Assembly: GCA_965287045.1 (NCBI GenBank)
Contig: OZ336878.1
Location: 56,482,001-56,546,000 of the forward strand
From: Carcharhinus amblyrhynchos
Lineage: Eukaryota
Length of the DNA stretch: 64,000 nucleotides
Reading direction: 5' to 3'
In this document: one piece after another, positions 1 to 64,000 of the stretch
Position numbering within the stretch: position 1 is the first letter of the stretch
Layout: every line of letters begins with the position of its first letter
Translations under genes and position numbers: made by a program
The notes under the pieces: generated by a model
What the model saw: only the letters and a program-made list of their open reading frames with translations
The model's database searches: none
What the model was told of the DNA's origin: nothing

Positions 1-765
1 TACTAGTGTCGTGATTTTTGATTTCTTCAAAGGGGAAAATAAATCTGCACCTCCTGCATTTTTGACCAAATCAGAATTTAGTATTTCCAGTGTAGTAGTC
101 GTTGTTGGAATATCATTGAAGAGCTCGATCAATAATTGTACTTTCTGTCCAAACTGGAAATCAAAAGAAAGCTTTTCTACATTTTGCAAGGCATTAAGTG
201 TTCCAGGTTCATATACCTGCAAATCTCCTGTAACTAAGTAAACTTCCTTAAGTGGGATTCCACGAAGTGCAGATAAGGAATTGGACTTCAAGGAAGAAAG
301 GCGAGCGTTTCCAAAGTGTAGAGAATACAGGTTCTGTAGTTTGTTGATTTCTGCTCCAAAGTCAGCTGTATCAAACATGTTGTTAGTGATATCAAGGTGT
401 GTTAGTGACTGGAGATGATTAAATGGCAAGGCTGAAATATCATGCAAAAAATTATTTGAAAGATCAAGATACCTTAGTTCTGAATTTTTTGAAAATGATC
501 CAGGTTCTATGTCAGTGATGTGATTGAATTGAAGAAAAAGTTTTTTCAGCTTGGTGAAATTCTGGAAACTCTGCTGTTGAATTATTCTGATGCTGTTGTA
601 AGACAAGTCCAACATCTCTACATCTGGTGCCAGGATACAATGAGAAAGTGGATAGCCAATTCCTGAGCAATTTACTAAAGAAGTATCTATCCTCTTTGGT
701 ATTGCAGAACAACCAACCATAAATAGAATACTTGTCAATATAGCACCTGCTCCGAGATGTGTCAT
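1..765 (-). CDS. Toll-like receptor, TLR1/2 family (TLR2/18/25/27-like), N-terminal ectodomain; partial, continues beyond window start
   Basis: Open frame from ATG 765 to position 1: MTHLGAGAILTSILFMVGCSA (signal peptide), then LDLSYNSI, LFLQFNHI, LDLSNNFL, LDITNNMF (LRRs) and LQVYEPGTL (resembles TLR2 LQSYEPKSL). An alternative in-frame ATG lies at 810. A splice acceptor (tttgtcttttaacag) precedes 847. The TIR domain is not visible in the window. Confidence 0.85.
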   Translation of the reverse strand, partial: MTHLGAGAILTSILFMVGCSAIPKRIDTSLVNCSGIGYPLSHCILAPDVEMLDLSYNSIRIIQQQSFQNFTKLKKLFLQFNHITDIEPGSFSKNSELRYLDLSNNFLHDISALPFNHLQSLTHLDITNNMFDTADFGAEINKLQNLYSLHFGNARLSSLKSNSLSALRGIPLKEVYLVTGDLQVYEPGTLNALQNVEKLSFDFQFGQKVQLLIELFNDIPTTTTTLEILNSDLVKNAGGADLFSPLKKSKITTLV

Positions 766-1094
766 CTTGGCCTTGATATCTGTGAAGTAAATTCTGCTTC
801 CAAGTAACATCTCCTCTATTCACGCACTGGCCATTTTCAAACGCACCCTGTTAAAAGACAAATATGAATAATGATAAATCTGGCCTTGATGTTAAAGAAG
901 GTATTAGCAGCACCATATTCAGTGCAATCCTGGTCCTATTAAAAAAAAATCCAGACACCAGTCACCCAAACTCTGATAACTTACTTCTTTTTGTTTGAGT
1001 CTTAGATGCTAAGTGGCTCTGCGCTAGGCACTATGATAATCAGAAATGGATGAGGTGTTGTTGATGATAGTGTTTTGGGTGGTTTTAGCCAAGA

Positions 1095-9370: not shown

Positions 9371-9729
9371 TCAGATCTTGGCATTCACATGCACAGACAG
9401 AAAGAAATAGACAGAGAGAGAGAGAGACAGATACAGAAAGGGATGCAGACAGCGAGCGAGAGAGACAGATACAGACAGGCATCCAGACAGTAAGAGTAGC
9501 ACAGACACAGGTGCATAGATAGAAAGCGACAAACACAGAGAGCTTTTCAAACTGCTACCTAGCTCCCTAGATTCTTGTTGTAGGACCTTATCCTTATGTT
9601 GTTGGTACCAATGTGAAGTGAACCATGACCTCTGACTGTTCACCCTCTCCCTTTAGAATGTCCTGCAGCACTTGCCCCTGGCACCAGGGAGGCAACACAT
9701 CATCTTAGAGTCATGTCCGCTGCCACAGA

Positions 9730-10175
9730 AATGGATGGTGAGGACCTGGGATGGTGAGCAGGGAAGAGGTAAAGGGGTAAGTGTTGCACCCTCTATGATT
9801 GCATGGGAAGGTGCCACGAGTAGGGGGTGAGGTGTTGGGTATGACGGAGGAGTGGATCAGGGTGTCCCGTAGGGAACAATCCCTGTACAATGCTGACAGG
9901 GAGACTGAAGGGAAGATGTGTTGAGTGGTGGCATCATGCTGAAGTTGGCGGAAGTGGTGCAGGATGAGCTTTTGAGTCCAGAGGCTGTCAGGGTGAAAAG
10001 TGAGGGCAAGGGGATCCTATCCTGGTTCCAGGAAGGAGGGGAGGGGGTGAGAGCAGTGGCCCGGGAGAATAGGTCAGACGTGGTCGAAACCACGATTGAA
10101 GAAGAAGGAAGACATATCTGCAGTGCTATTTTGAAAAGTGGCATCATCAAAACAGATGCAGCAGAGGGGAAGGAA
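9730..10175 (-). mobile_element. Penelope-like element fragment
   Basis: PPSWNQDRIPL; matches the Penelope copy at 23.5-24.6 kb. Confidence 0.7.
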
Positions 10176-11477
10176 GTGAGAAAAATCTATCCTGTCCATC
10201 CAATCATCTATCTAAGTAAAAATATTTGCAAGTTATAGCCCAATATCCTTCCTGTCCCTTTGCAATATGATGAAGCTGATTTTCTGCAGAGTATCCTGCC
10301 CAACCGGTTTTCAAGCTAATTTAAACTAAATTAAATTAAACAACCAATTAAATTGGGGACATTCTGTCACAGATGACTCACATTATGCTAGTCAGAAAAC
10401 AAGATATGTGATATTGGAAACACCTGAGCTTGAGGCCATTGCAAAAAAAGGCTGAAGTAAAATCCATACTTAGATATGAGCCTGTGAATTTTTTTTATCT
10501 TTGTAATCTCCAGTGGAGAGATCAGGCAATTTTCTTACCCCAAGTGCTAGAAGGTGTGGATTAGACATAGGTTTGAGGTAGCCATGGGGACTTCTTATCA
10601 AAATGACTGAACCTATAGGGAGCAATCTTGGATATTGAGCTTCAAATGAAACAATGGCTGGCCTTTCCGTTCCCGTTCTTGTTGGGCAGGTTTGGTGATG
10701 ACTGAAAACGCAAGGCATGTTTGACGTTGGCATTAAAAATTTGCACAGTTGTCCCCTCCCCCATTAGTTGGAGCTGTGTTTTCTGCCTTTGAATGTTGGG
10801 AACCTAATTTGCATCTCACTATTGAGTGTTTTTGTCAGAATCATACACTACCATCAAAAATCCATTCACAGTGGAGTGATATCAGAACAACGCCAAAGCA
10901 CAAGTGGTACCTGGTGTGCAGACCTCAGGGCAATCTAGAGGTGAGCTCGGCCATATTTGGTGGGAGGGGGGTATCGGAGTTTGATTTGGAGGACACCAGG
11001 CTTGACTAGCAGTTACTGGTGTTTGACTGGGAGGGAGATTGGTGGCTTTATGTCAAGCTGGGGCCTAGCCGTGTGAGACCTATGGGTTGACTCAGGGGAG
11101 ACTGTCATGTGTGAAAAGTACCATTCTTGAGGATACTTTTTGCTACTGGGCCATGAGCCTCTTGAAAGGTCCTCACAGTGGGAAGGGAAGCTGGAATGAG
11201 TGCGGTGGGGATGTTGGGAGTCATCACAGACAGATGGTTCCACTTAAATCTGCAATAGTGGCGGCTTCTGGAGATAGCATGTTTTTGAGATCAATACTAA
11301 TTGGAAAAACTTGTCAGTCATCAGTATCCCAGCTGTAACACAATCGACATCACACCCACTTACGTGCCACTTCTGTGTGATAAATATAACCGATGAGATA
11401 TTCCACTCAATCTGCAGTATGTTTCACAGCAGTGGCCTGCCATCGGTTGGTGGAAGGATCTTTTGGCCCTGCCTTTT

Positions 11478-16178: not shown

Positions 16179-16408
16179 GATGTGGGTATGCCGGCGTTGG
16201 ACTGGCGTAAACACAGTAAAAAGTCTGACAACACCAGGTTTTAGTCCAACCTATTTATTTGATAATATACTCGCAAGCTTTCGGGTTAGCCCCTTCGTCA
16301 GGTGAACTCTCCATTCACCTGACGAAGGGGCTAACCCGAAAGCTTGCGAGTATATTATCAAATAAATAGGTTGGACTAAAACCTGGTGTTGTCAGACTTT
16401 TTACTGTG
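16179..16408. mobile_element. Non-autonomous Penelope-associated palindromic element
   Basis: Perfect 97-bp inverted repeat (16210-16306/16314-16410, 7-nt loop); 12-bp direct repeat TTAATCACCCCT at 16167-16178 and 16409-16420. Confidence 0.85.
16313..16351 (+). ncRNA. Minimal type I hammerhead ribozyme motif (mirror copy on minus strand at ~16269-16307)
   Basis: CTGACGA-A-GGG(GCTAA)CCC-GAAA-GC-TT; stem I attcac/gcgagt with one mismatch. Confidence 0.6.
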
Positions 16409-17326
16409 TTAATCACCCCTATCATTTTGCTGTCTTTGCAAATTGTGAATTCCAACTCATTCATATAAATAGTGAAAAACGTTAATCTCAGCATTGATCC
16501 CTGGATAACACCAATTACCAGCATTGCCAATCTGAATAATTCATTTTAACTCTGACACACTTTTTGATTTGTAGCTAGTTTATTGCTGTCCAATCTATTG
16601 TTTGCCTCCTGACTCCAACAGCTTTTTGGTGTCTGGGTTAGGACCCTGATGCCAAGTTCAAATGGAAGACTCAACTCCATGTTGTGTGCAGAATAGTCAC
16701 CCAGTAGCGATTTTTCCTGAATCAGCCAATTGATGGCCAGAGGATTCACTTGCAATTCAATTCAGGACATTGTACAGGCTTTCAAAGTTGGAGGGTCAAT
16801 AGGAGGCCCTTCAGTTCAGAAGACCTGCCTTTTAAGGTGAGACACATAGAGCATCTCCATCTCGAGGGGGGTGGGTGGTGCTTGGTGGGATTGTGCTGTC
16901 CAGTAGCCTGCGTTTTCATGTCTGGCCACCCTAAATTGAACTCTGGGGGGCCTGATCTCAGTGCAGCCAGGCTTTACTGGTGTGTTGAGGCCCAGCCCCT
17001 CTACATGATGGCGTGAAACACATCTACCTGTATTATGTGGCAGAATATGCTAAGAACTGGAGAGACAGAAACAGGAGCATTGCCCTGGGGAGAGAAACAG
17101 GGGCATTTTCCCACTGGAACCAACAAACTGTCCTTTTGTGGGTCAAATTTTGCCCAAAGGATTTGAAGAGCACTAGATAATGTACCTCTATAAAATCTAT
17201 TTTACAGCATTTTAAAATAAATAGGTTAATGCTGCATTATTTTAGCACACATGCATTGCTTAATGATTAATCCAGGAAATGAAAACTCTTGAAACATTAT
17301 TTGGAATTCTGAAAACCCCACCCTAC

Positions 17327-22840: not shown

Positions 22841-23484
22841 CATAGTCCATGAAAGAATAAAAAAGCACAATATCTAATCGTTGAATTTAATTAACAATTT
22901 ATGTGTGAATATCCTTAATAATTTTAGGTTACAGAAACTCCATTGCTGGTGCTCCCTGACACCGACGAAACTTTGTTTTATTATAATAAGAGTTTTATCA
23001 ACAAAGTGTGATCAGAAATCGCAGGAAATACAGTCACACCTACAAGAAACGTACACCATACACGAGGTTTATATAATTAGACAATGTTTATCCATTTGGA
23101 TGATCCACCAGATAAACTTGTTCATCGTAGTGTCTGTCAAAAAATTAACATTAAAGTCCAAGCATCTTTTGATCACTTTAATTTTACAGCTAATTTTTCA
23201 GATGAGATGGACTATTTCTCAACTCTATCTCCTGCAAATTCAAGCACTAAATGAAGATTTTTTTCTCAAGTCAAAATTCTGTGCAGAATCAGATGTGTTT
23301 CCTGATTCACCATCCCTTCTTCCACCCTTTTAATTTGAGTTTCTTTTAAGCCAACTTGTGCTTTCTTCCTTTTCCATTTTTGTCTTTCAGATTCCATTTC
23401 TAAGCATTTCGATCTTTCTCATCTTTGCTCCTCTTCCAACTCCAACTCATTCATTCAAAACTGAATTCTAGCTAAGTATAGTTT

Positions 23485-24605
23485 TCAGGATTGTCAATGA
23501 CCTCATCTCTTTTGAAGATCTTCTCTCCACAGCCTCCAACCTCATAGTCTCCCAACCTGCACAGCCCACTTCTACCTCCTTCCCAAAATCCTCAAGCAGG
23601 ACTGCCCTGGTAGGCCCATCATGTCAGCCTGTTCCTGCCCCACCGAATTCATTTCTTCCTATCTTGATTCCATTCTCTCTCCTCCTGTCCAGTTCCTTTC
23701 CACCTACATCCGCGATTCCTCCGTTGCCCTACACCATATCAATGACTTCCAATTCTCCGGCCCAAACCGCTTCCTCTTCACTATGGCTGTCCAATCCCTC
23801 TACACCTCCAATCCCCACCAGAATAGCCCCAAAAGTCTTTGCTTCTTCCTCGCACAGTGATCTGAACAATGCCCATTCACCACCATTCCTCTGTCTGGCT
23901 GAACTGGTTCTCTCATCCAACAATTTCTCCTTTAACTTGTCTCATTTCCTCCAAATAAAAGCTGTGGCTATGGGCACCCAATGGGTCCCAGTTATGTCTG
24001 TCTCTTTATGGGGTATGTGGCCTATTCCTTCTTCCAGTCCTACTCTGGCCCCCACCCACAAGTCCATTTTTGGTGCATAGATGACTATTTCGATGCTACT
24101 TCATGCTCTTGTCTGGACCTGGAAAAATTTATCAATTTTGCCTCCAATTTTCACCCCTCTAACACCTTCACATGATCACTTCTGACACTTCTCTTCCTTT
24201 CCTTGAACTCTTTGAATGCATTTCTGTTGATAAACTGTCCACTAGTATCCATCAGAAGCCCACCGACTCTCACAACTACCTTGACTACAGCTCTTCACAA
24301 CCCATATCCTGTAAAGGTTCCATCCCATTCTCTGAGTTCCTTCACCTCTGCTGCATCTGTTCTGATGACGCCACTTTCCAAAATAGAGTTGCTGATATGT
24401 CTTTCTTCTTCCTCAATTGTGGTCTTCCATGCACTGTGGTTAACAGGGCTCTCAACCGTGTCCAACCGATTCCCCAAGCCGCTGCTCCCACCACACCCCC
24501 CCCTCCCTCCCTCCCAGAACCAGGATAGGGTCTCCCTTGTCCTCATTTTTCACCGCACCAGCCATTTCTGCCATGATGCCAAAACTCAACACATCTTGCA
24601 CCATC
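23485..24605 (+). mobile_element. Penelope-like retroelement RT region (degenerate)
   Basis: YLLPKI.KQDCPGRPIMSACSCPTE, TMAVQSLYTS, VAMGT..GPSY, IDD and KPTDSHNYLDY motifs. Confidence 0.9.
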
Positions 24606-24704
24606 ATCATCACCCCCCCCCCATCCACCCCCACCCACTCCACACCAAGCTCAGTATCCTCCACGTATTTCTATCTTTTTGGACTCCCAAAGAATTCCCA
24701 AATT

Positions 24705-25592
24705 TGTTGTGACTGTAGGTGTCATTAATTCTGAACAAATCTCAGATTGAAATCCGACTCTGCTGATTGTCATCTGTTTTTTGTATTGTAGAAACAAAAA
24801 GGAATAGCTTCTGAGCACAAGAGCACAGGAGTGCAGCAATAACTTTTAAAACCTGAAGAACCAAAATGTTTATTGGAAGATTAAACTTAAACACACAAAA
24901 TAAAAGATATGCAGTTAAGTATGCTGTTCTAGATTCTTAACCATAAAGTCGAGGAAAACTGAGTATTGTTTTAATCTTTATCAGAAGGACTATCCATGAC
25001 TTCCCAGAATAAATCCACACTGATGTGGTTTTCCAAAGTGTTCTCAAAACCATCTGTTTCTCCAAACAAGTGTTTTCCTGGACCAAAACTGTAGTTGCAC
25101 TTCTTCAATTACAAATTTTTCACAAGAACGGGCTTTCAGCGGAACTTCCCCCACAGCTGAAACCCTATTGTTATAAATAATCCTTTAATCCCTTTCATTT
25201 TATTTCTCCATTGTCTTCAAGTATTTCTTTGAAAACTTAAGATTCCCAATACAAAGTTTTTCATGTTACAATTTCATCATTTTTTGGTCAATACAATTTT
25301 AAAATTCCTGCTCTTGTTTGCTCCTGAATTTCCTGTACAGTGCAAATGTTCTTTGCAATAGCTACAAATCAATTTCAACACTTACCCCCAACTGCAACTT
25401 TCAAATCTGCTCCATTTACTTGCAAGTTAAAACCCACTATCAGGCCTCATGACAAAATACAAAAGGGTCACATCTTTGACCTTTCATTCCTTAGCTGCCC
25501 TGCTCCAACCACCTCTCATTTGATTAAACCTGGACACAGATATAATTTTACTCTTATCTACACAGAATATATATACACAACGTATCATCACA
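24705..25592 (-). mobile_element. Possible solo LTR
   Basis: TG...CA ends and composition similar to the 3.9-4.6 kb LTR; no clean TSD. Confidence 0.3.
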
Positions 25593-27312: not shown

Positions 27313-28990
27313 TGAAGTAGTATAAGGGTATCTGGCATTGGAAGGTTTAATAATGAATTGGGAAATAGTACCAACCACAGTGTGATGTAAAGAGGCACAT
27401 GACTTGAGACTAGGGTCAGTTGTGAACTGGACAGAGATCTGTGTAGAAACAAACATGGAGTTAGCTCAGAGCTTGAGCTATACTCTATAGACGTACAGAG
27501 CAATATGTTATCGATAAACAATGTTCAACTACATACTTAGAACTTCTTTGTGCAACCGACTGAACCTATAACATTTGACATGGTGGCAGCTATTGGAAAA
27601 CCTCAGAAGCTGAAGCAGAAATTCAAAAGCTGGAAAATTAAAGGAGCAGCATTTCTGACCCAACCGAAAGCACCTGAAGTGGAGTCACAGAGGGGATTGC
27701 CGGAAAGAAGCTCCACTGCAGAATTGGGAACAGAAAGAAAGAAGAAAAAGCTGAGGACTCTGCAAGATACCATGGAGATCTATTGTGAATGCCCACAGAG
27801 TGCAGAGCCTAAGATCCAAACAGGGGTGAGCAAACATATTCAGTTCTAAGCCAGAATTAGCTTTAATAGCTTCAGTGCCATTTAAAAAAAGTCAGAGCAA
27901 ACCATTTCTCAAAGCACTGCAGGTAGCTGGGGTTTCAGAGTTTGTGCCATGTGGCGGCTGAACTTCTTGGAAGAAAAGAAAAAGAAGTGGAAGGGATAAA
28001 AACCTCTGTCAAAAGCTGGAAATCAGTTGTAAAATGCCCCAAATTCCTCCAATATTGCAGGGAAGGCCCAAGAGTTGATTGAGTAAATTGCTGCCCAAAA
28101 GTAAAGACAAAAAGAGGTCACATAACCATCACGTCAGGAGCCTGGCAAAACATGACAAGTGTGAGAAGGTGCTTTAAAAGAAATTGATTACTGCAGTGCC
28201 ATCTTTAAAAGCTGCTCAGGATTTAAAGCTGTACTCACCCGAATTTTAAAGCAACCATGGACAACAAATTAATGTTACCAGAGCCATTTCCACTTAGCCA
28301 AGGGCCAGAGCATTACAAAACTGGGGACTTTGGTGGAAAAGATTCTTGAGATCAATGATAGCATCAGGTTTAAATAAAAAGACAGAAGCTGAGTCATAGT
28401 AGAGCCGATGAGTCAATGATCTTATTATGAGGCAAGGAATAAATGGATCCTCAGGTAAATTTGATAAAGTTCTATAATCTGCCAACAGCACTGATTCATT
28501 TTACGTGGTGAAATCAAGCCATGGGACAGAATGGCTCTAACTGTCCAGCTAATGAAGCGACAAATGAGCTGAGACACCAGACCAAGAAAGTTAATACCAA
28601 AACAGACCACAAGAGGGTAGGCGACCATATCAGTGCTGTGAAGCCAAATGACACCTCAGGCAGGAGCGATGTCCAGCAATCTTACTACAGTGTTTAAACT
28701 GCAACTGCCTGTGAGACTTTGGAAAATTATGCAAAGCTAAGAAAGACATGCAGATGGGCGCAGCAATCCAGGAGGTCGAGATACTAAACCAGGAAGTTTA
28801 GTACCTCAAGGTACTAAAGGAAGGTCAAGGATCCTGGATTCCCTTCATGGAACGCTGACATTTTGGTAAATGGTTATTTTCCCAACTTCAAATTGGACAC
28901 GGGAGCCAGTGTTATGATCCTGTCAGATAAGGAAATGTGGTTGAGGGACCTTTGGCTCCAAACAGATACATGACTTATCCGCCTGGAGAA
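27313..28990 (+). mobile_element. Gypsy LTR retrotransposon, 5' part (LTR, PBS, gag, protease), degenerate
   Basis: LTR ends ...GACA at 27580, followed by PBS TGGTGGCAGC; degenerate CCHC knuckle (CLNC...LC) at ~28690; protease FKLDTGASV at ~28890. Confidence 0.8.
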
Positions 28991-29563
28991 ATCTGACTTC
29001 CAGCCATAGGCATGGTCCTTGAAGCACTATAATATTCGAATTCAGATAAATATTCAGAAAACAAATATTTTCTGACATAATTTCATGTAATTATCTTTTA
29101 AAAAGCAGAAGCATAACAATGTGTAAACAGAAAGAAAGCGAAAACTGATCCTTCACGTAAAGCAATAACTTCCCTGTTCCTACACTCCCAAAAACCCCTT
29201 TCAAAACTGCAGGCAAATCGAGGAAAATTATATTTACTATCTGTTCTAATGAAAGCTTTTGATGCATAATTTTGCAAAAGGGTATATTTTTAGTTAGGAC
29301 TCTAAGCCGGTATTACATTAAAGAACAGGCTTAAACTTCATTAAAACGAATTACAAAGTACAAAAGAGGACAGACCTTTTGGCTCAAATAGTTCTTGATG
29401 GAGTTCATACTTTACCAAACTGTACCAGTTCCCTTGTCATTAAAGCTTATTGTATAAATCTTCCCTTTAAGTGTTCATCTAACCTTTCAATTTAAGTTAG
29501 GTTTTAATTATCATTTCAACTTTATGTAAAAATGATTCAAAATAGGTGCTGATTGTTACATAC

Positions 29564-37132: not shown

Positions 37133-39134
37133 GGATACAGGTGAGGTCCCAGAGGACTGAAGGATAGTAAATGTGGTACTGTTGTTTAAAAAGGGTAATA
37201 GGGATAACCCAGGTAATTATAGGCTGGTGAGTTTGACGTCAGTGGTAGGGAAGTTGTTGGAAAGGATTCTTAGGGATAGGGTGTATAAGCATTTAGAGTG
37301 TGGCAATTTGATTAGTGATAGGCAGCATGGCTTTGTAAAGGGGAGGTCGCGCCTTACGAATCTGGTAGAATTTTTTGAGGAGGTGACAAAAACGGTCGAC
37401 GAAGGACGAGCCGTGGATGTCGTCTATATGGATTTCAGTAAAGCGCTTGACAAAGTCCTTCATGGTAGGTTGGTGGAAAAGGTTAAGGCTCATGGGATAC
37501 AAGAACAGGTGAATACATGGATTGAGAACTGGCTTGGTAACAGGAGACAGAGAGTAGTAGTGGAAGGGTCCATTTCAAGCTGGAGGTCTGTTACTAGTGG
37601 TGTGCCACAGGGCTCAGTACTGGGACCTTTGTTATTTATAATATACATAAATGACTTGGAAGAAGGAGTAAGTGGCTTGATCAGCATGTTTGCAGATGAT
37701 ACGAAGATGGCTGGACTTGCTGATAGTGAGGAGCAGTATCAGGCAATACAGCAGGATAGAGATAGGCTGGTCTATTGGGCAGAGAAATGGCAAATGGAAT
37801 TTAATCCAGACAAATGCGAGGTGATGCATTTTGGAAGAAATAATGTAGGGAGGAGTTACACGATAAATGGTAGGCCTATTACAAGCATAGAAATGGTGAA
37901 GGACTTGGGGGTGCAGGTACACAAGTCTTTGAAGGTGGGATTACAGGCGGAGGTGATGATGAAGAAGGCCTATGGTATGCTTGCCTTTATAGGGAGGGGT
38001 ACAGAGTATAAAAGCTGGCGTCTAATGTTGCAGTTGTATAGGACGTTGGTTTGCCCGCATTTGGAGTACTGCGTCCAGTTCTGGTTGCCTTACTACCGGA
38101 AGGGCATGGAGACCCTGGAGAGAGTGCAGAGGAGGTTTACCAGGATGTTGCCTGGTATGGAAGGACTGAGTTATGAGGAAAGATTGGGCAAATTGGGGCT
38201 GTTCTCCTTAGAAAGGCAGAGAATGAGGGGAGATCTAATGGAGATGTATAAGATTATGAAGGGTATAGATAGAGTGAACAGTGGTAAGCTTTTTCCTAGG
38301 TTGGATACAATAATTACGAGAGGCCACGGGCTTAGGGTGAGGGGGGCGAGGTATAACTCGGATGTTAGAGGGAGATTTTTCACACAGAGGGTGGTGGGGG
38401 CCTGGAATGCACTGCCATGTAGGCTGGTGGAGGCAGGCACGCTAAGGTTGTTTAAGGCTTACTTAGACAGGCACATGAGTGGGCTACAGATGGAGGGATA
38501 CAGGAGACTTTTCTAAATAAAGATCAAGAGCCTTGGGACGTCCCTGGGAATCAACTGATTCCTATGGATCTTCCAACATATTTCATGGCTCACTTGCTTT
38601 ATTTCTGCGCTTCTGGGGAGTCCATAAATGTCTGTCAAAGTTTTGCATGTTTAGTGATGTCTTTTCTTTTACTTCACAGGAGATTTGGTCCGCCTTGTTG
38701 ACCAACAAGGGGCATACATGCGATGGGTCGTGCGACGGCTGCTCTTGGATGTTGCTTCAAGAGCTGCCTAGTGCTTCACGTCGTTAGTGTAAGCTTAAAC
38801 TGGATCAGTTGACGGGCAACATGACAGCTCAGTGGCTATCACTGTTTGCTGTGCAGATACATGGATTTGGGCTGGTGTCTGCAGGAGTTTGCATATTCTC
38901 CCTGTGATTGCGAGGGTTTTCTCCGGGTGCTCCGGTTTCCTCCCACACCCCAAAAAATGTGCTCTTAGGCTGATTGGTGTAACAAATTATCCCTAAATTA
39001 GTCTTCCCTCAATCTTCCCTAATAGGTGTAGACAAAGGTCATAGGTAGAGGAGGGCACTCAATGTTAAAATGGCGGCGCGGGCTTGTTAGGCTGAAGGGC
39101 ATGTTTCCCGTGCTGTATTGTTCTTTGTCCTTTG
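37133..39134 (+). mobile_element. 5'-truncated CR1/HER1 LINE with open RT ORF (37173-38516) and composite 3' UTR containing a V-SINE body
   Basis: 447-aa uninterrupted ORF with DFSKA.DKV, GVPQGSVLGP and FADD; V-SINE core at ~38813-38980; tail cccgtgctgtattgttctttg. Confidence 0.92.
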
Positions 39135-50419: not shown

Positions 50420-50760
50420 GAGTCAGTCAAATGTTTCAGGAATCCCCAAGGATGTGCCAGTCAATATTTGCTGGGCTCCCTGATAGCTTGCTGGTCAATA
50501 TTTACAGTGTACCTTGATAGTGTATTGATCAATATTTGCAGGTTAGTCATTATTTGCAGTGTTCCCTAACAGTGTGGTAGTCGATATTTGCATTTTTCCA
50601 TGACCAAGTGTTCGTTGAAATTAGCAACGTTCCCTGAAAGCTAGTTGATGTTTACAGGGTGTATTAGTTGATATTTGCAGTATTCTCTGATGGGTGTTGG
50701 TCAATGTTTACAGGGTTTCCTGACAGTGTCAGAAAATATTTGCAGTGTTTCCTTGTATTT
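50420..50760. repeat. Degenerate ~30-bp minisatellite (resumes at ~51380-51540)
   Basis: Recurring gtcaatatttgcagtgttccctga-like units. Confidence 0.65.
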
Positions 50761-51084
50761 GTTATAACTTCGAATAAACAGATTTGTATCTGTCAATCTG
50801 ACAGTAAAACTTAAAGTGGTTCCAATTAAATATGTAAAGTATCCAGGAATTCTATATAAATAACCTGAGCAAATACATGTTCCATGAGAAGGTTTGACTG
50901 AAGCACAACTTGATTATTGAATCTAGCATGGTTACGGAAGAGAAGGAAGCCATTTAACCTGACATACATGATGGTGTTGCATGAATCAGACTCCTACACA
51001 TTCTCAGGAAATGCATTCCAGGTTCTAACCACCCACTGCATAAAAAAAATTCTATTGTTTCTTTGACAGGGTGTTAATGGTCAA

Positions 51085-51378
51085 AGAACCCTACAGTGCA
51101 GAAAGAAGCCCTTCAGCCCATCGAGACTGATCACAATCCCACCCAGGTCCTACCCCCATATCCCTCTCAGGATACTAAGGGGCAATTTTAACATGGCCAA
51201 TCAACCTAACCTACACATCGTTGGACTGTGAGAGGAAACTGGGGCACCCAGAGAAAGCCCACGCAGACATGAGGAAAATGTGCAAACTGCACACAGGCAG
51301 TGACCCGAGCCACGAATCGAACCCAGATCCCTGCAGCTGTGAAGCAGCAGTGCTAACCACTGTGCTACCGTGCCACCC
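51085..51378 (-). mobile_element. HE1/V-SINE
   Basis: Head gggtggcacggtagcacagtggttagc, B box ggttcgattc, V-core and tail. Confidence 0.9.
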
Positions 51379-52646
51379 ATGTATATTTGCAATGTTTCCT
51401 GAAAACATGTTGGTCATTGTTTGCTGTGTTCCCCAAGCATATTAGTTGGTATTAGCAGGGTTCTCTGTGCGTTAGTCAATTATTGCAGGGTTCCTGACTC
51501 CATGATAGCTGATATTTACAGTGTTCCCTGACGGGGATTTAAAGTTTCATAATATTGTGTAGTGATATTTTCCCTACCCAAAAATGTTAATTTTGTTTTA
51601 CTTTCATGTGTATTCAATTACAATGTGCTATCAATAGTTTTAGTTTGGAATGAATTTTTAACTGTGTATTCAAAGCTATCCCACACACTCAAAGCTATTC
51701 TATTGCACTCAACAATCCGTATTGAATATTAGAAGGTATTTAATTACTCAAGTAACACTTGAATTTGTTCAGTTTCTCATTTAATCCATAGATATTGTTT
51801 TGCTATACGCTAAAAGCTTGAGAGTGCCACCTGATCCCATAAATCTCGGAGATTATACTTCCTATCCATTCATTCTCCAGGACTTAGGTCTAAACTGCCT
51901 TAGGATGTAAATTCTTCCCATGGCCACTGTCTCCATACTCTTAAATTCTCCACCCCCCAAGACATGCTTCTCCCTCTCTCCAGCCTCTCTTCCCCCCTCA
52001 TTCTTGCCACTCCCCATTCCACCATCCTCTCCTTCTGGTCTCCAGGTCTTGGGACCTCCAAACTTGCTCCTCTGACTTCCCCAAGGCTTATTACCATGAT
52101 GCTGCTCCCATGATGATTTTTATGTTTAAAGGGCCACTTCCTGTTTTCAGCCAGCCTTGTAAGCAGAGGTCTTCAGTTGAGAGGAGGGACGAGAAGGTGG
52201 GGAGAAGAGTGCGGTGGAAGGGAAAGAAAGGAGTGGGAGGTAAATAAGAAGTGTTTGGATGGGGCATAAGGAGTGTATCAGCAGGGAGGAAAAAGAAGAG
52301 GAGGGAGAAAAAGAGAGTTGGGTGAAAGGATTGGTGGGGAGGGAGCAAAAAGTGTGATTCTTCACACTGCAGACATAATCAACTGAGACTTAGGAAAATT
52401 CTGGCTGTATATGCAGTCATATTTTGTTGTGAACACTGCAGGACGATAATTAACAACAATGTCAGTTGATAAACTGTCTTTAGGTATCACCAGCCTGGTT
52501 CTGAGTGAAAATGATAATTAAATGGTCAGTTTGGAGTGAAAGTGAAATAGAATGATAGCCAGATGCTTGCTTGTGAGTGAAAGTGGTACCAAATAATGAC
52601 AAAATGATTGCAATCAAGTGCAGTTGACATGAAATGAAAGTTGTTG

Positions 52647-55145
52647 AACAACAAAGAACAATACAGCACAGGTACAGGCCCTTCGACCCTCCAAGCCTGC
52701 GCCGCTCATGCGCCCAGATAGATCATTTGTTTGTATCCCTCTATTCCCAGTCTGTTCATGTGGCTATCTAGATAAGTCTTAAACGATTCCAGTGTGTCTG
52801 CCTCAACCACCTTGCTTGGCAGTGCATTCCAGGCCCCCACCACCTTCTGTGTAAAATACGTGCCCCTGACATCTGGTAGGCTGATAGAAAAGGTGAAGGC
52901 TCATGGGATACAAGGCCAGGTATGTAGATGGGTGGAGAACTGGCTTGGGAGGAGGAGACAGCGGGTAGTAGTGGAAGGCTCCTTTTCCAATTGGAGGTCT
53001 GTCACCAGTGGTGTGCCGCAGGGCTCGGTACTAGGACCTCTTCTATTTGTGGTATATATCAATGACTTGGAAGAGGGGGTAGGTGGTGTGATCAGCAAAT
53101 TTGCTGATGACACTAAGATGGTTGGATTGGCGGGTACTGAGGAGCAGTGCCTGGCAATGCAACAGGACATAGACAGGCTGGTAGATTGGGCAGATAGATG
53201 GCAAATGGAATTTAATCCGGAGAGATGCGAGGTGATGCACTTTGGCCGGAATAATGTGGAGGGGAGTTGTACGATAAAAGGTAGAACTATCCGGAGTATA
53301 GATACGCAGAGAGACCTGGGGGTGCAAGTGCACAAGTCCCTGAAGGTGTCGGTGCAGGTGCAGAATGTGATGAGGAAAGCGTATGGTATGTTAGCCTTCA
53401 TAGGAAGGGGTATAGAATATAAGAGTAGGAGTCTGATGTTGCAGTTGTATAGAACGTTGGTTAGGCCTCACTTGGAGTACTGCGTCCAGTTCTGGTCGCC
53501 GTACTACCGGAAGGATGTAGAGATCCTGGAGAGAGTGCAGAGGAGATTTACCAGGATGCTGCCTGGTATGGAAGGGCTGTCTTACGAGGAAAGATTGAAC
53601 GAACTTGGGCTGTTTTCCCTTGAGAGACGTCGGCTGAGGGGGGATCTAATAGAGGTTTATAAGATTATGAAGGGGATAGATAGAGTAAACGGTGGTAAGC
53701 TTTTTCCGCTATTAGAAATGGATAGAACGAGGGGTCACGGGCTTAGGGTGAGGGGGGCTAGGTATAAGACAAATATTAGAGGGCAGTTTTTCACGCAAAG
53801 GGTAGTGGGGGTGTGGAATGCACTGCCGAGTAAGGTGGTGGAAGCAGGCACGCTAGGGTTGTTTAAGAGTCACTTAGACAGCCACATGAGCGGTCTACAT
53901 ATAGGGGGATATAGCAGGCCTTACTAAATATTGTAGGCTTGGGATTCCGTTTTTGCCTCAGGGATGTTACAGTCTTTGCCTGTTTAATAATGAATTTTTT
54001 GTCTCCACAGACATTTAAGTCCACCTTGTTGACCAGCAAGGGGCATGCATGCGGCAGGTTGTAGTGGGCTGCTCTTGGATGTTGCTTCGGGAGTTGCCTA
54101 TTGCTTCATGTCGTTAGTGTGCTTAAACTGGACCATCTCGAGGGCAACATGACAGCTCAGAGACTATCTCTGTTGCTGTGCGGACACATGGATTTGGGCC
54201 TGTGTCTGTGGGAGTTTGCACGTTCTCCCCGTGGTTGCGTGGGTTTCCTCCGGGTGCTCCGGTTTCCTCCCACATCCCAAAGATGTGCTTTTAGGTTGAT
54301 TGATTGGGTAACAAATTGTCCCTATATTGGACCTCCCTGATCCTCGCACATTAGGCGTAGACTAAAATCATGAATAGGTCACTGAGACAATGGGACGGCG
54401 GCGTGGGCTCGTTGGGCCTGTTTCCCGTGCTGTGTTGTTCTTTGAAATCTGTGTTGAACCTTGCTCCCCTCATCTTGAACTTGTGACCTCTTGAGTTCGT
54501 CACCTCCGACCTGGGAAAAAGCTTCCCACTGTTCACCCTATCTATGCCCTTCATAATTGTATACACCTCTATTAGGTCGCCCCTCATCCTCCGTCTTTCC
54601 AGGAAGAACAACCCCAGTTTACCCAATCTCTCCTCATAGCCAAGACCCTCCATATCAGGCAACATCCTGGTAAACCTTCTCTGTACTCTCTCCAAAGCCT
54701 CCACATCCTTCTGGTAATGTGGTGATCAGAACTGGATGCAGTATTCCAAATGTGGCCTAACCAACGTTCTATACAGCTGCAACATCACACGCCAACTTTT
54801 ATACTCTATGCCCCGTCCAATAAAGGCAAGCGTGTCATATGCCTTCTTCACCACCCTCTCCACATGTGCTGCCACTTTTAAGGATCTGTGGACTTGCACG
54901 CCCAGGTCCCTCTGTGTGTCTATACTCCTGATGGTTCTGCCTACATTAGATCTACCGAAATGCATCACTTCGCATTCATCTGGATTAAATTCCATCCGCT
55001 ATTTCTCCGCCCAATTTTCCAGCCTATCTATATCCTGCTTTATTCTCTGACAATGTTCATCACTATCCGCAACTCCAACAATCTTTGTGCTGTCCGCAAA
55101 CTTACTGATCACACCAGCTACATCTTCTTCCAAATCATTTATATG
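52647..55145 (-). mobile_element. CR1/HER1 LINE (host copy) split into 52647-52875 and 54447-55145 by an opposite-strand CR1
   Basis: The two halves rejoin across the duplicated ATCTG; ORF pieces at 54351-54704 and 54726-54995; tail at ~52647-52700. Confidence 0.88.
52876..54446 (+). mobile_element. 5'-truncated CR1/HER1 LINE with composite V-SINE-containing 3' UTR (second copy)
   Basis: Open RT frame to the stop at 53927 (GVPQGSVLGP, FADD); 3' UTR homologous to 38670-39130; 5-bp TSD ATCTG. Confidence 0.92.
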
Positions 55146-55935: not shown

Positions 55936-56448
55936 ATGTGATCTATAATATCAGGCTTTTTCAAAGTGGGGGTCACAGCCCACACATGGGTCACAGGGAT
56001 ATTGAAACTGGGTCGCTGGGTATGCGGTTTTTTAAAAAAAAAGACATGTTCTATGGTCCTGTTCAAAACATCATGAGATGTTCTGTGATCCTGTTCAAAA
56101 AAAAAGTGGTATGTTCTGTTTATAATGTGCATTTTATAAAAGGCAGTATGGCAATTGAGGATCTCTGGACTCAAGATGATGACATGGTCAGCATGCAGAG
56201 GAAAAGCTTAGCATTGCCTGATACAATTCCTTACATAAAGTGCACATAACTTGAAAAGATAAGGTGTATTTTTAAATGTATAGTAAATCCTGTTTAGATT
56301 GTGGCTCTGGCAACAGTACTGCAGCTTGCTTGGTCAGTAGGTTGTGAGTTTCTATTTCTAGCATGTTGAGACATTAGATCAGTATGTGTGTCTAAGTGTG
56401 TAACATTCATTTATATTAGTGAAAGCATTCAAGATCACCTGCACTCAC

Positions 56449-56718
56449 CTTGCACTGTCAGAGTGATTTTGACAAGCACAGAACCCATGAGATTCCTGGC
56501 CACACACTCATATTCTGATGTGTCCTCCTTCTGCACAGCAGCAAGCCGCAATGAGTTGTTAGATAAGATTGTGATCCTGTCGTTTCCTATTAATGGCTGA
56601 CCTTGACGGGACCACTCAATGGTTGGAAGTGGCTCTCCATCTGCTTGACAGTTCAGCATCACTGTGGTGCCAGCATCAGCAACAGTATCCATGGGTTCAA
56701 CAGTGAATACTGGGGGAC
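56449..56718 (-). CDS. HMCN1: Hemicentin-1 exon (last Ig I-set domain)
   Basis: PPVFTVEPMDTVADAGTTVMLNCQADGEPLPTIEW...DTSEYECVARNLMGSVLVKITLTVQ; 270 bp. Confidence 0.95.
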
Positions 56719-57544
56719 CTAGGGAGAAAAGATCAACACTAACAAAGTGAAAGATAGAAAGATCTCAACTATTTTGCATTCTTTTAAATGGAGAAGCCTC
56801 TGGGAATAAGCCCAAGTTTTTACTGTAGGGCAAGGTTGAAAAAATACATCTGAGTACGAGTTAACAGATCTGCCAGAACCTCAGAGTACAGACGTTGAAG
56901 AATAATAAGAGTTGTTGGTAAATCAAAATAACGTGTCCAAGAAGAAGGAAGATGTGTAAGAGACACACCAGAGACAGCATACAGGGAAGTGCAAAGACAT
57001 ACTTTTTAGACAACAGTAGAGATACATTCCTCTGTGAAATGATATTTGACAGCATTGCTGGTGATTACATTGCAAAATTTCAAAAACAAAAAGATTCATG
57101 AACAGGATATGTTCAAAAAGAATTATGACTGAAATCTGATGCCAATGTAGATGAGCTCCACTTTAGTATACATTATGTATTCCTATAGAACCGTCTGTAG
57201 GTCATTCTGATATCAACATTGCACCAGTAGGTTACAAAATTCTATGTGAAGATCCCACATAGAGAGATTTCAAGGAAACAAGTTACTGTATCTATGAATC
57301 TTCTGCTTAGGCAGTCTCTTGGGATTGAGGATGACTTGTTTCCACCCTGGTTCAGTGTGTTCTGTGATGGCTGATAAGTCAGATGCATGATCTGCAGACT
57401 CTGCCACGTGGGACAACTGGTGCTTGAAAGTCCAGATTGTATGGAGGTGTTATATGATAAAGGGTAAGCCCATAAGGAGTATAGAAATGCAGCGAGACCT
57501 GGGGGTGCAAGTGCACAAGTCTTTGAAGGTGGCAGTACAAGTGC

Positions 57545-60225: not shown

Positions 60226-60759
60226 CCTTCCCCCACCCAATCCACATACCCTGCCTTTTGGAGCAAAAGGGATTTAAAAATTTTTTTTATAGGAACAAAA
60301 TGATACAGTGTACCTTTGGCTGGCGGAAAGGGACTTCATTTGAGGTTCGAGCGTAGGATGCGTCAGGCCTCTTGATTCTAACTTGCCATTGCTCCTAAAC
60401 TCCTCAACAGTCATTTCAATGTCAGCTCACTGAGTAGTGTAGCTCCTGCAGCCTCCAATCTAATCTGTCCTAATCTTAGTCACAGCTCAGTATACATTAT
60501 ACGTACTGAAAATGGTGGTGAAGACAGCTAAGATTATTAGTCACATTTCAGCCACTGCAGAGAAGGACATCTTCAATAAAACAACATAAGATGAAGATAA
60601 ACTGTGAGGTGGTGGGATGAAGGCTGTGGACATTATTGAAAGAAACTCTTAGCAGGGAAAACAATAAAGAGAAAGAACTGAATGGATATTAGTGATCAAA
60701 GCCTTTAAAGGGAAAGGGAGCCAGATGGTGTAAGGTGGGTAGGAATTGTTGAGATAGTG

Positions 60760-63020
60760 TTGGTTACAGAACCCGTTAAAGAAATCTTCCTAGCCTTCAG
60801 CAAGTTAACTCCCAAAATTCTTTTTAACCACTTATAACTATATAATAAAGGGCACAGGCAACGAGCTATCTCAACGTTTAGGTGTTAACGTGTCACTGCT
60901 CAACACTACATTGACCCTTGGTCTGAATCATGTGCCTTCTTACATCATTTTATTGGTGATACCGTACTCAGACCCACATTAACCTTGTACTTGCCAGACC
61001 CCCTCTCCACCCACTGCCCCCAGTGTTTGTCCCATTAGATATAGGGTTACACTAGTTTATTTCATGTCTTGCATTGTTATGAGTCCTAATGCTATGCTAC
61101 TATTATTGCTATTACAGCATTAACAACAATCTCACTACCCAATCTCCCCCCTTCAAGTCCTTGAAGTTAGAGATTCAGTCTGGAGGTCTTATAACCTTTT
61201 CATATCTCATTTGCTGTTCTGTTGGGAGAGTGGCAGACTCTGGAGATTCGATTTCTTACTGTTAGATCTGAGGTTGGACTGGCATTTAGGTGTGCTTTTA
61301 CTTTTTATTTCCATTGCTTTATGTTGAACCATGCCTGGTCAGTTTAGCTGTTGCATTGATCCATAGTTGCTGTTATTCTCAATCGTTCATCGCAGGGTGT
61401 AGAGACTTGGTGTTGTCACCTTGGCATTGTTTTTTCTTCTTCACCATGTGGGTCTTCTCAAAGCCTTCTGAGGTTGAGGAAGAGTGTTCCTGTGGTGAGA
61501 AGAAGGCACCTTGGTGCATCACCTCTGTGTTTTGTTGTCAATGGTGAGAGATTGGTGCCCAGTTCCAGTATCCCTTTTGACTGTGGCATACTGTGGAAGT
61601 TGTAGCGAATGCACAGTGGTTGTTGTGTCAACCATTTGTACTATTGTTGTAGTTGGAGATAGGATTTTCTTAGACTGCTAACTATTCTCTGGTTCTGCTT
61701 TCACTGAAGGTATCATGATAATCTCGTGGATGATAATTTGGTCTGACCAGTGGGGACTTTCCAGGACCTGGAATGATAATGAAAAAAACTTGCTCAGCAA
61801 AGAGAGGAGAGCGATCGATATGAAATCTGAGTCTTTAGTGTTTGAAGACCCATGCTGTTCTGGCTGTCTAACAATGGTGGTAGTTTTGATATTCTCTACC
61901 ACTTGAAGGAAATCCAAGGCTATACAGGCATTCCTGAGAGAAAGGCTGGTTATGGATGACATCCATCAGCTTAAAGATCTGTTTGCTGCTTTACCTCGGA
62001 GGTCCTAGGCATTTGTCACAATGTTCATTAGGGACATCTGATGCTTAAAATTCATTGATTTTTAATTGAAGATCTAGCTTTGTTTCTACAAGTTAATAAT
62101 TTAAGTGTTTTGGGTCCTCTTTTTTAAGTGTTGTATTTCCTGTGAGCAGCATGCCAGTTTTCTCATCAGCTGTTGCTTTTCCTTAATGAATTCAGCTTTG
62201 GTACGTGAAAGCTGATTTTCTACACTGGTTAGCCGTTCCTTGACAGAGTATAATTTCTCCATGCTAATCTTCAAGCTCACATTCTGTAATTGCATGTCTG
62301 TCAATTATTTTTGAAACATCTCACACCTCCTTTTGTTTGCCGTTCCATGTTTTGGATTTTTATCTCTTTGTATACCTACTTGGGAAAGTAATGTTTTTCT
62401 AAAGTTTCTTCCAAAGGTGCAACTGTTTCTTTCAGTGCCGTGGTCTCATTATTGTACTCGTCAGCTTCCTCCAGAGTACTGAAGATTCTTGTACCTTCTC
62501 TGAAAACTGGCTTCTCAGCTGTTTCGAAGTTTGTATTAAATTTATTTTATCCCACTTCAAAATGTGCCAGAGGACAAACTCTGACCTGAGAGATCCTTGC
62601 AGTGTGTGAAGGTCTGTTGTTCTACCATTCCATTGCTTAAGGTAGTCTTTATTTCTTCATGCCGCTGAAGGGTTATGCACTGTGCTTGATCTCAATTTTG
62701 AAGAACAATTAGCTGTTCTTTCAACTGTTTATTTTCTTGTTTAACTCTTGATTTCTGACTCTGCGTTTCAATGTATTTCTTTGTCACTACTGATAGCTCT
62801 AATGCAGCTTTTTCTGTAGTAGCATTCAACATCTGTTAAAAATAGTTTTAAATATATACATACACAATGTAAGGGTTACAGAAAAGGCGCTATCTCTATG
62901 TTTAGGTCTTAACACTTCACTGCTCAGCACCACACTGACCACAAGTCTGGTCATGTGCCTTCTTACATCACTGTGTGAACAGTACAATACTCAGTCCCAC
63001 ATTAACCCTGTGTCTGCCTT
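60760..63020 (-). mobile_element. Non-autonomous Gypsy-derived LTR element carrying a captured coiled-coil gene fragment (ends approximate)
   Basis: Direct repeats at 60865-60995 and 62889-63018, related to the Gypsy LTR at 27.4 kb; polypurine tract AAGGGGGGAGA at 61143-61153; pol-tail-like RYEKVIRPPD just before it. Confidence 0.65.
62101..62832 (-). pseudogene. UACA/RAI14/ANKRD24-family coiled-coil fragment, disrupted
   Basis: MLNATTEKAALELSVVTKKY...VKQENKQLKEQLIVLQN*DQAQCITLQRHEEIKTTLSNGM aligns by eye with human UACA LNDTLAKTNRELLDVKKKF...IKDKNEILKRNLENTQNQIKAEYISLAEHEAKMSSLSQSM; stops and frameshifts present. Confidence 0.65.
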
Positions 63021-63061
63021 AACATGACGCTTTAGTTTAGGAAGGTCAGCTTCCCCTCAAG

Positions 63062-63462
63062 AATGAGGGGAGATCTTATAGAATCATATGAGATTATGAA
63101 GGGAATAGATAAGATAGAAGCAGGGAAGTTGTTTCCACTGGCAGGTGAAACTAGAACTAGGGGGCATAGCCTCAAAATAAGAGGGAGCAGATTTAGGACT
63201 GAGTTGAGGAGGAACTTCTTCCCACAAAGGGTTGTGAATCTGTGGAATTCCTTGCCCAGTGAAGCAGTTGAGGTTACCTCATTGAATGTTTTTAAGGTAA
63301 GGATAGATATATTTTTGAACAGTAAAGGAATTAAGGGTTATGGTGAGCGGGTGGGTAAGTGGAGCTGAGTCCATAAAAAGATCAGCCATGATCTTATTGA
63401 ATCGCAGAACAGGCTCGAGGGGCCAGATGGTTGACTCCTGCTCCTAGTTCTTATGTTATCTT
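63062..63462 (+). mobile_element. CR1 3' end
   Basis: MRGDLIESY...TRGHSLKIRG...VVNLWNSLP; tail ctcctgctcctagttcttatgtt. Confidence 0.9.
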
Positions 63463-64000
63463 TAGTTTAGGAAGGATAGATTGAAACTTACCAGCCAAAC
63501 AGTTGTAGGGGCAGTTAGCAGGAAACACCATCCACTGGGATGGAGATTTGGCAAAAGACTTCAGCTTTACAGTATTCAAAATCAAGCAAAACAACAAGAA
63601 CTTTACAAGGAAAGAGGGATGGCCAGGCTTCAAAGATACAGTACCACCATAGTATGAAAGGATTTTATACTGAAGCTGAAAATGATTTATTTCATCCCAA
63701 AATTTAACCCAAAGTAAAGCAATTTATGCAGTTATGAAGAATAGGTTGGCTAAGATGGATTGGGAAACTAAAAAAAAGTTAAACAATCAATGATGAGTAA
63801 TTAAAGAAATGTTAAATAATTTGCAACAAATATAGATTCTTTTAAGACACAATAAACCACATTCAAAATGTTATTCCTGTGTGCACCACATTTTTGTTTG
63901 TATCAACTTTCTGACAATTAATATCCCATGCTCACATTTTTGATAAAAATACCCCTATATAAATTGACTTGTCTGTTTGTGATTACAGTGTTGTATTCAA

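Follow-up and report, generated by a model that had tools for sequence, protein, structure and literature searches.

Host-gene capture by LTR elements has been described in animals and plants. Parts of Tan et al. 2016 (PMC5131818) describe animal LTR-mediated retrocopies in which partial host coding sequence replaces the internal open-reading frames, and Supplemental Table 8 of that paper is cited there as covering retrocopies of five other species. In the sections of Chong et al. 2014 (PMC4299795) used here, CrocERV29 and CrocERV31 are retroviral and carry near-complete open-reading frames under purifying selection. Maize Bs1, as outlined in passages of PMC5131818, is a plant element with three parental genes and one to five copies.

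The locus described here lies in a 64,000-nucleotide stretch of the Carcharhinus amblyrhynchos genome (hereafter the window), where a first, sequence-only reading had proposed that a host UACA segment replaced gag/RT within a Gypsy-derived LTR structure. The core of that proposal holds: we consider it reasonably likely that a non-autonomous LTR element of Gypsy descent inserted once, long ago, at 63024-60747 and is now dead, its coding core having likely been replaced by the UACA piece. The parts of the element, in minus-strand order, are as follows.

62835..63024, minus strand: 5' LTR remnant (copy A), begins TGT, has a 10-nt deletion near its start and runs straight into UACA
62340..62835, minus strand: UACA-derived coiled-coil segment, residues 847-1041 of Heterodontus francisci UACA
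62101..62339, minus strand: second coiled-coil-like stretch, with a 67-codon open frame at 62304-62101, adding 19 points to the UACA alignment
61210..62100, minus strand: body, multi-contig in three runs, in which no protein family or integrase likeness was found
61167..61207, minus strand: Gypsy integrase end motif RYEKVIRPPD, with a stop in another frame at 61169-61167
61143..61153, minus strand: purine tract AAGGGGGGAG picked out in the sequence-only reading; in the alignment the LTR begins 130 nt further downstream
61014..61021, minus strand: short purine tract of 8 nt abutting the 3' LTR, weaker than AAGGGGGGAG
60747..61013, minus strand: 3' LTR (copy B), 267 nt, TG...ACA

UACA had been put forward as the expected best match for a protein search of the coiled-coil region, and with one frame of 62832-62100 the sole match among 469 candidates was indeed Heterodontus francisci UACA (XP_067874302.1, E 6.6e-11). 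Three collinear UACA pieces were recovered by tblastn in three frames (61%, 39% and 44% identity), and a frameshift-aware alignment to UACA residues 840-1070 scored 352; eight shuffles reached 44-70, and three other stretches of the UACA coil aligned to the same segment gave 48-76. Judged from these alignments, the likeness is specifically to UACA and not a product of generic coiled-coil bias, and RAI14 was absent from the matches; the collinear UACA match put forward in the sequence-only reading is thereby borne out. About 94 of 163 residues are identical where UACA 847-1041 lies on 62835-62340, and the piece carries a 29-residue deletion, three stops and five internal frameshifts, with a sixth at its end. 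The second coil (62339-62101) matched none of ten candidates at E<=1, and only generic coils were hit in Pfam, Atlas and solved structures.

We take the part of UACA captured here to lie in one very large exon, and presumably an RNA or a DNA route would then give the same sequence. Part of one published account places UACA Ser1234 in exon 16 (PMC12881209). No exon junction could be shown within the UACA piece, as would fit its entry into a Gypsy copy of the same family at the DNA level, through break repair or a small duplication out of the gene, with the chimera copied thereafter; sense orientation together with replacement of the core is, however, the outcome of template switching in the relevant parts of PMC5131818, and we hold the DNA-level route to be very unlikely.

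The UACA piece is framed by two copies of one repeat. Direct repeats lie at 63011-62870 and 60988-60846; over 147 nt they share 75.5% of their letters (E 3e-22), close to the 75% first estimated by eye, and the local score of copy A against copy B is 164, where 200 shuffles give at most 38. The repeats themselves therefore stand as originally seen, with their bounds (63018-62889 and 60995-60865) revised to about 63024-62835 and 61013-60747, and their K2P distance is 0.25 over 178 columns. Copy B begins with TG at 61013 and ends with ACA at 60747; copy A begins with TGT at 63024 and is without a homologous 3' end, the last ~56 nt of the LTR being missing from it in a three-way alignment of A, B and the LTR of a related element at 27.3 kb. 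A search for the missing part upstream of the neighbouring LINE did not find it. The related element is the following.

27313..29006, plus strand: related Gypsy 5' half, with a 268-nt LTR, primer site TGGTGGCAGC at 27581, and broken gag and protease

Both repeats resemble window positions 27376-27465 within this LTR, a resemblance already remarked on in the sequence-only reading (71% over 91 nt, E 7e-5; scores of 82 and 79, with 200 shuffles each reaching at most 37 and 44). The LTR lengths are nearly equal, at 267 nt for copy B and 268 nt for the 27.3-kb element, and the 3' ends of the two show no likeness (420 of 500 shuffles). The 27.3-kb half-element stops near 29.0 kb and lies antisense in a hemicentin intron. 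Its protease is 42% identical (E 3e-5) to that of a metagenome Gypsy locus, L002, in which frames for gag, protease, RT and integrase accompany the same primer site TGGTGGCAGC; since L002 combines Gypsy frames with a primer site shared with the 27.3-kb element, the repeat family is assigned to Gypsy LTRs. We take L002 and the Gypsy elements with this primer site to belong to a Mag / K02A2.6-like clade. At the DNA level the LTRs show little or no likeness to L002 (scores reached by 16, 243 and 302 of 500 shuffles), none of 127 candidates matched the 27.3-kb gag-protease in a protein search, and the LTR motif had no matches in the metagenome contigs. Another locus, L003, was discarded as a Gypsy relative, being a phage contig with a chance match.

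Downstream of the UACA piece, RYEKVIRPPD at 61207 ranks first of 127,936 six-frame positions for the L002 integrase end motif, a motif that was chosen after the likeness had been seen and that leads by a small margin (27 vs 24 for the next); L002 is the one reference in this test, a search for further references having given no loci. Against the whole L002 integrase, 62340-61150 scored 35, where 25 shuffles gave 41±6, so that the integrase-tail-like region suggested earlier is reduced to its ten-residue end motif, the remaining body showing no such likeness. No Pfam family was found in three whole frames or in six body frames, and a HMMER search of one of the three body frames against 1.84 billion proteins gave no matches; about 1.1 kb of body matches no family. 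As in L002, the integrase end motif is followed by a spacer of ~150 nt and then the LTR, the stop-to-LTR distance being 153 nt here and 152 nt in L002. The purine tract AAGGGGGGAG occurs once in the window (0.11 expected) and is present in 9 of 100 shuffles; it had been named as the polypurine tract, and it does not abut the LTR. The tract at 61021-61014 is the likely decayed polypurine tract. An origin of the two purine tracts by old duplication was tried and rejected, with 454 of 1000 shuffles scoring as well.

Unlike L002, the UACA element is without gag, protease, RT, RNase H and integrase core: none of these was found in it beyond the ten-residue integrase end motif, and it is therefore Gypsy-derived and non-autonomous, not a full Gypsy member. 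It fails as a full Gypsy element on three counts, being without core genes, primer site and target duplication. Seven matches to the primer site with at most one mismatch occur in the window, none of them in 60747-63024, and there is no primer-binding site after copy A. A target-site duplication of 4-6 nt was not found at any of eight boundary pairs, the best of which had three matching letters, and may have decayed. A normal reverse-transcription product keeps its whole 5' LTR and primer site, so the absence of both points either to a later deletion or to a patchwork, and with no primer site after copy A and no gag the present copy could not be a direct reverse-transcription product.

In a patchwork, copy A and the tail with copy B would be separate Gypsy insertions, and UACA would have come by another vehicle, either a LINE-made retrocopy fragment or a member of another repeat family, and landed between them. 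Such an origin would suit LTRs that are 21-25% apart, the missing target duplication and a junction that falls inside the LTR without a primer site. It would also suit a copy A that begins TGTTAA and meets the junction at TTAACA, readable as a short complete LTR, but TTAACA turns up 0.66 times per kb, and both other LTRs continue beyond that point. The depth of contigs is uneven along the element, yet it is raised in 13 of 13 element bins in run X1 and stands at 1.0-1.1x just outside, at 60327-60648. All parts moreover lie on the same strand in canonical order, and no poly(A) run stands behind the UACA piece (no A run longer than 6 after 62340, by eye, although age could have erased one). We regard separate insertions as unlikely, and favour a single insertion that later lost part of its 5' end. 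The LTR and UACA alignments meet near 62835, and partial host coding sequence stands in place of the internal open-reading frames between the LTR parts, as in a retrocopy.

The element lies in an intron of a hemicentin gene, next to a LINE.

56435..56719, minus strand: hemicentin Ig exon, the next downstream of the element, which lies in the intron above it
63030..63475, plus strand: very abundant LINE 3' end (63046-63459), with a 16-nt target duplication at 63030-63045 and 63460-63475

Minus-strand exons in the window encode, in order, Ig, TSP1, G2F, EGF and fibulin C-terminal domains, which identifies hemicentin, and we take the TSP1 repeats to mark HMCN1 as opposed to HMCN2. No hemicentin exon was seen upstream of the element as far as 64000, the window end. 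The LINE end, presumably of CR1 type, reaches a summed contig depth of ~1e6 in three runs and is an insertion separate from the UACA element: it has a 16-nt duplication of its own, and 5 nt separate it from the outer end of copy A. Elsewhere in the window, directly downstream of the hemicentin gene, an open 273-codon leucine-rich-repeat frame (1-819, minus strand) runs off the window edge and looks to us like a Toll-like receptor ectodomain. Two long open LINE frames of 451 and 383 codons (37161-38516 and 52776-53927, plus strand) are ~81% alike, the first with an RVT_1 match (E 1.5e-32). A perfect inverted repeat at 16210-16410 (arms of 97 nt, 100% complementary, spacer of 7 nt) is either a young hairpin or an assembly artefact, a degenerate array at 50440-51531 has a spacing of 34 and 52 nt, and broken frames at 23472-24712 and 9711-10238 are, we assume, remnants of Penelope-type retroelements.

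The element is in sense to HMCN1, as previously stated, on the same strand as the hemicentin exons. This orientation, a CAG at 62835-62833, a donor match (7 of 9 letters) that follows after 247 nt and stops in all three frames would be compatible with the co-option of the insertion as a cryptic (poison) exon regulating HMCN1, a role suggested in the sequence-only reading on the strength of an acceptor placed directly before an ATG at 62832. That acceptor is ordinary: it has 10 of 17 pyrimidines and is equalled or bettered by 558 of the 3381 minus-strand AG sites, or ~11 per kb, and the real exons that were checked have 13-14 pyrimidines in four of five cases and 8 in one. The T-run of this acceptor is aligned to LTR sequence, and the ATG comes from UACA, where it encodes internal Met848. 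Orthologues, moreover, show change over the element no slower than over its flanks. The acceptor is thus not the strong one it was taken for, the poison exon is unsupported and we consider it extremely improbable; most likely, the UACA insertion does nothing today.

All or part of the stretch is contained in 22 runs from 12 studies, none of the runs being listed as RNA; our comparison of contigs covered four of these runs. The UACA-element locus is orthologous in three other organisms: it is present with its flanks in X7 and X15, and X12 contributes four short, low-depth pieces that lie outside the LINE. In X1, possibly the run behind the window itself, the own contig of the locus has one difference and no gap. 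Differences over element pieces amount to 2.3-3.2% in X7 and 7.2% in X15, against 2.1-4.2% and 6.6% over flank pieces, so the element has changed at about the flank rate and no constraint is visible. The two LTRs differ about three times as much as the X15 orthologue does and, if there was one insertion, it would therefore be much older than the X15 split. In simulations with half the LTR distance, 0.127 per site, as the decay, 2.8 stops arose on average (5-95% range 0-6), which the three stops seen fit; but they fit each of the four simulated decay levels and so discriminate little. Absolute dating of the insertion was rejected, as the shark mutation rate given in the part of PMC10587355 used here (7e-10 per site per generation) is a rate per generation.

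Contigs from other loci suggest that this copy is not alone. Summed contig depth over 13 element bins had medians of 11, 7.8 and 8.7x the own contig in X1, X7 and X15, against 1.9, 1.2 and 1.6x over 12 flank bins (of 30 bins, four LINE bins and one boundary bin were left out), although this depth is no copy number, with flank bins reaching 9.5x and element bins dropping to 1.4-3x. The top bin, 62581-62741, lies inside the UACA piece (44, 32 and 29x, respectively). In X1, at least four other contigs have a common indel at 62688 (among 12 of 97 indels listed), and at least two to four contigs have common letters at 61552, 61726, 61736 and 62235 (among 40 of 676 letters listed), although one of the indel-sharing contigs may come from the UACA gene itself, and others may be alleles. 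A joint between 62084 and 62270 is carried by one contig in each of X1, X7 and X15 (among 15 of 483 joints listed, which have short sides of 23-42 nt). Other contigs also cover 60769-60774, and one joint ends at 60771, within copy B. The own contigs of the locus break at the same spot, 62712-62740, in X1 and X7 and not in X15, which is what a near-identical word at another locus would produce. Within the 5' LTR, a step back of 55 nt at 62951-63005 is seen in one contig of each of X1, X7 and X15 (among the joints listed): elsewhere in the genome there is an LTR variant that carries an internal duplication. With variants common to other contigs, the UACA piece does not look single-copy, and several further copies of the UACA-bearing element are likely on the evidence of these shared variants. 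The amplification of UACA pieces by a shark LTR family, as proposed earlier, is supported to that extent; no contig from another locus crosses the LTR-UACA junction at 62835 among the pieces (32 of 177,908) and joints (15 of 483) listed, which are crowded with LINE matches. It is nevertheless likely that the whole family keeps the order LTR-UACA-tail-LTR.

The locus is probably a case of LTR-mediated host-gene capture of the kind described by Tan et al. 2016. Following the mechanism in parts of that paper (PMC5131818), UACA mRNA would have been co-packaged, and reverse transcriptase would have switched template onto UACA and back, a switch that would have spared both LTRs together with the end of integrase and the untranslated 3' region. 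An autonomous relative would then have copied the chimera, leaving several copies, a step that is supported but not closed. One copy came to lie in the hemicentin intron, where three other organisms have it in the identical position, and would have decayed neutrally, with a later deletion taking the 5' LTR end, the primer site and any gag. A bolder idea, that in sharks and rays host coiled coils have time and again taken the place of the enzyme core of Gypsy elements as Gag-fused oligomerising aids, strikes us as quite unlikely; if true, the Gag-fused coil would have helped a defective element to join helper particles or to blunt host control, and the UACA family would be a selected cargo, expressed during the spread of the family. 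The UACA element alone is a fossil with no sign of function, but it raises the question of whether captured cargos are biased to coiled coils and under selection during family spread, and such copies would confuse UACA annotation and read mapping.

In the largely open-access literature searched, we found no mention of UACA as the cargo of an LTR element. Set against the retrocopies in the portions of Tan et al. (PMC5131818) considered, the UACA element is alike in its partial host coding sequence, placed in sense in lieu of internal open-reading frames, in the lack of poly(A), in its intronic site and in its signs of further non-autonomous copying; unlike them, it is very old, sits in a cartilaginous fish and has lost its primer site. 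Maize Bs1, in the passages on it in the same paper (PMC5131818), is similarly a non-autonomous LTR element that carries partial host exons and was recopied. The parts of Chong et al. (PMC4299795) on CrocERV29 (KIT-ligand) and CrocERV31 (nectin3) describe host genes taken up long ago by LTR elements in vertebrates that evolve slowly, copied after capture and common to several species, as here, but in our case the carrier is of Gypsy type and the cargo is an internal UACA fragment with stops and frameshifts. The locus adds an old, germ-line case from a cartilaginous fish in which an LTR element took up part of a host gene, the process being a known one and the cargo, UACA, new.
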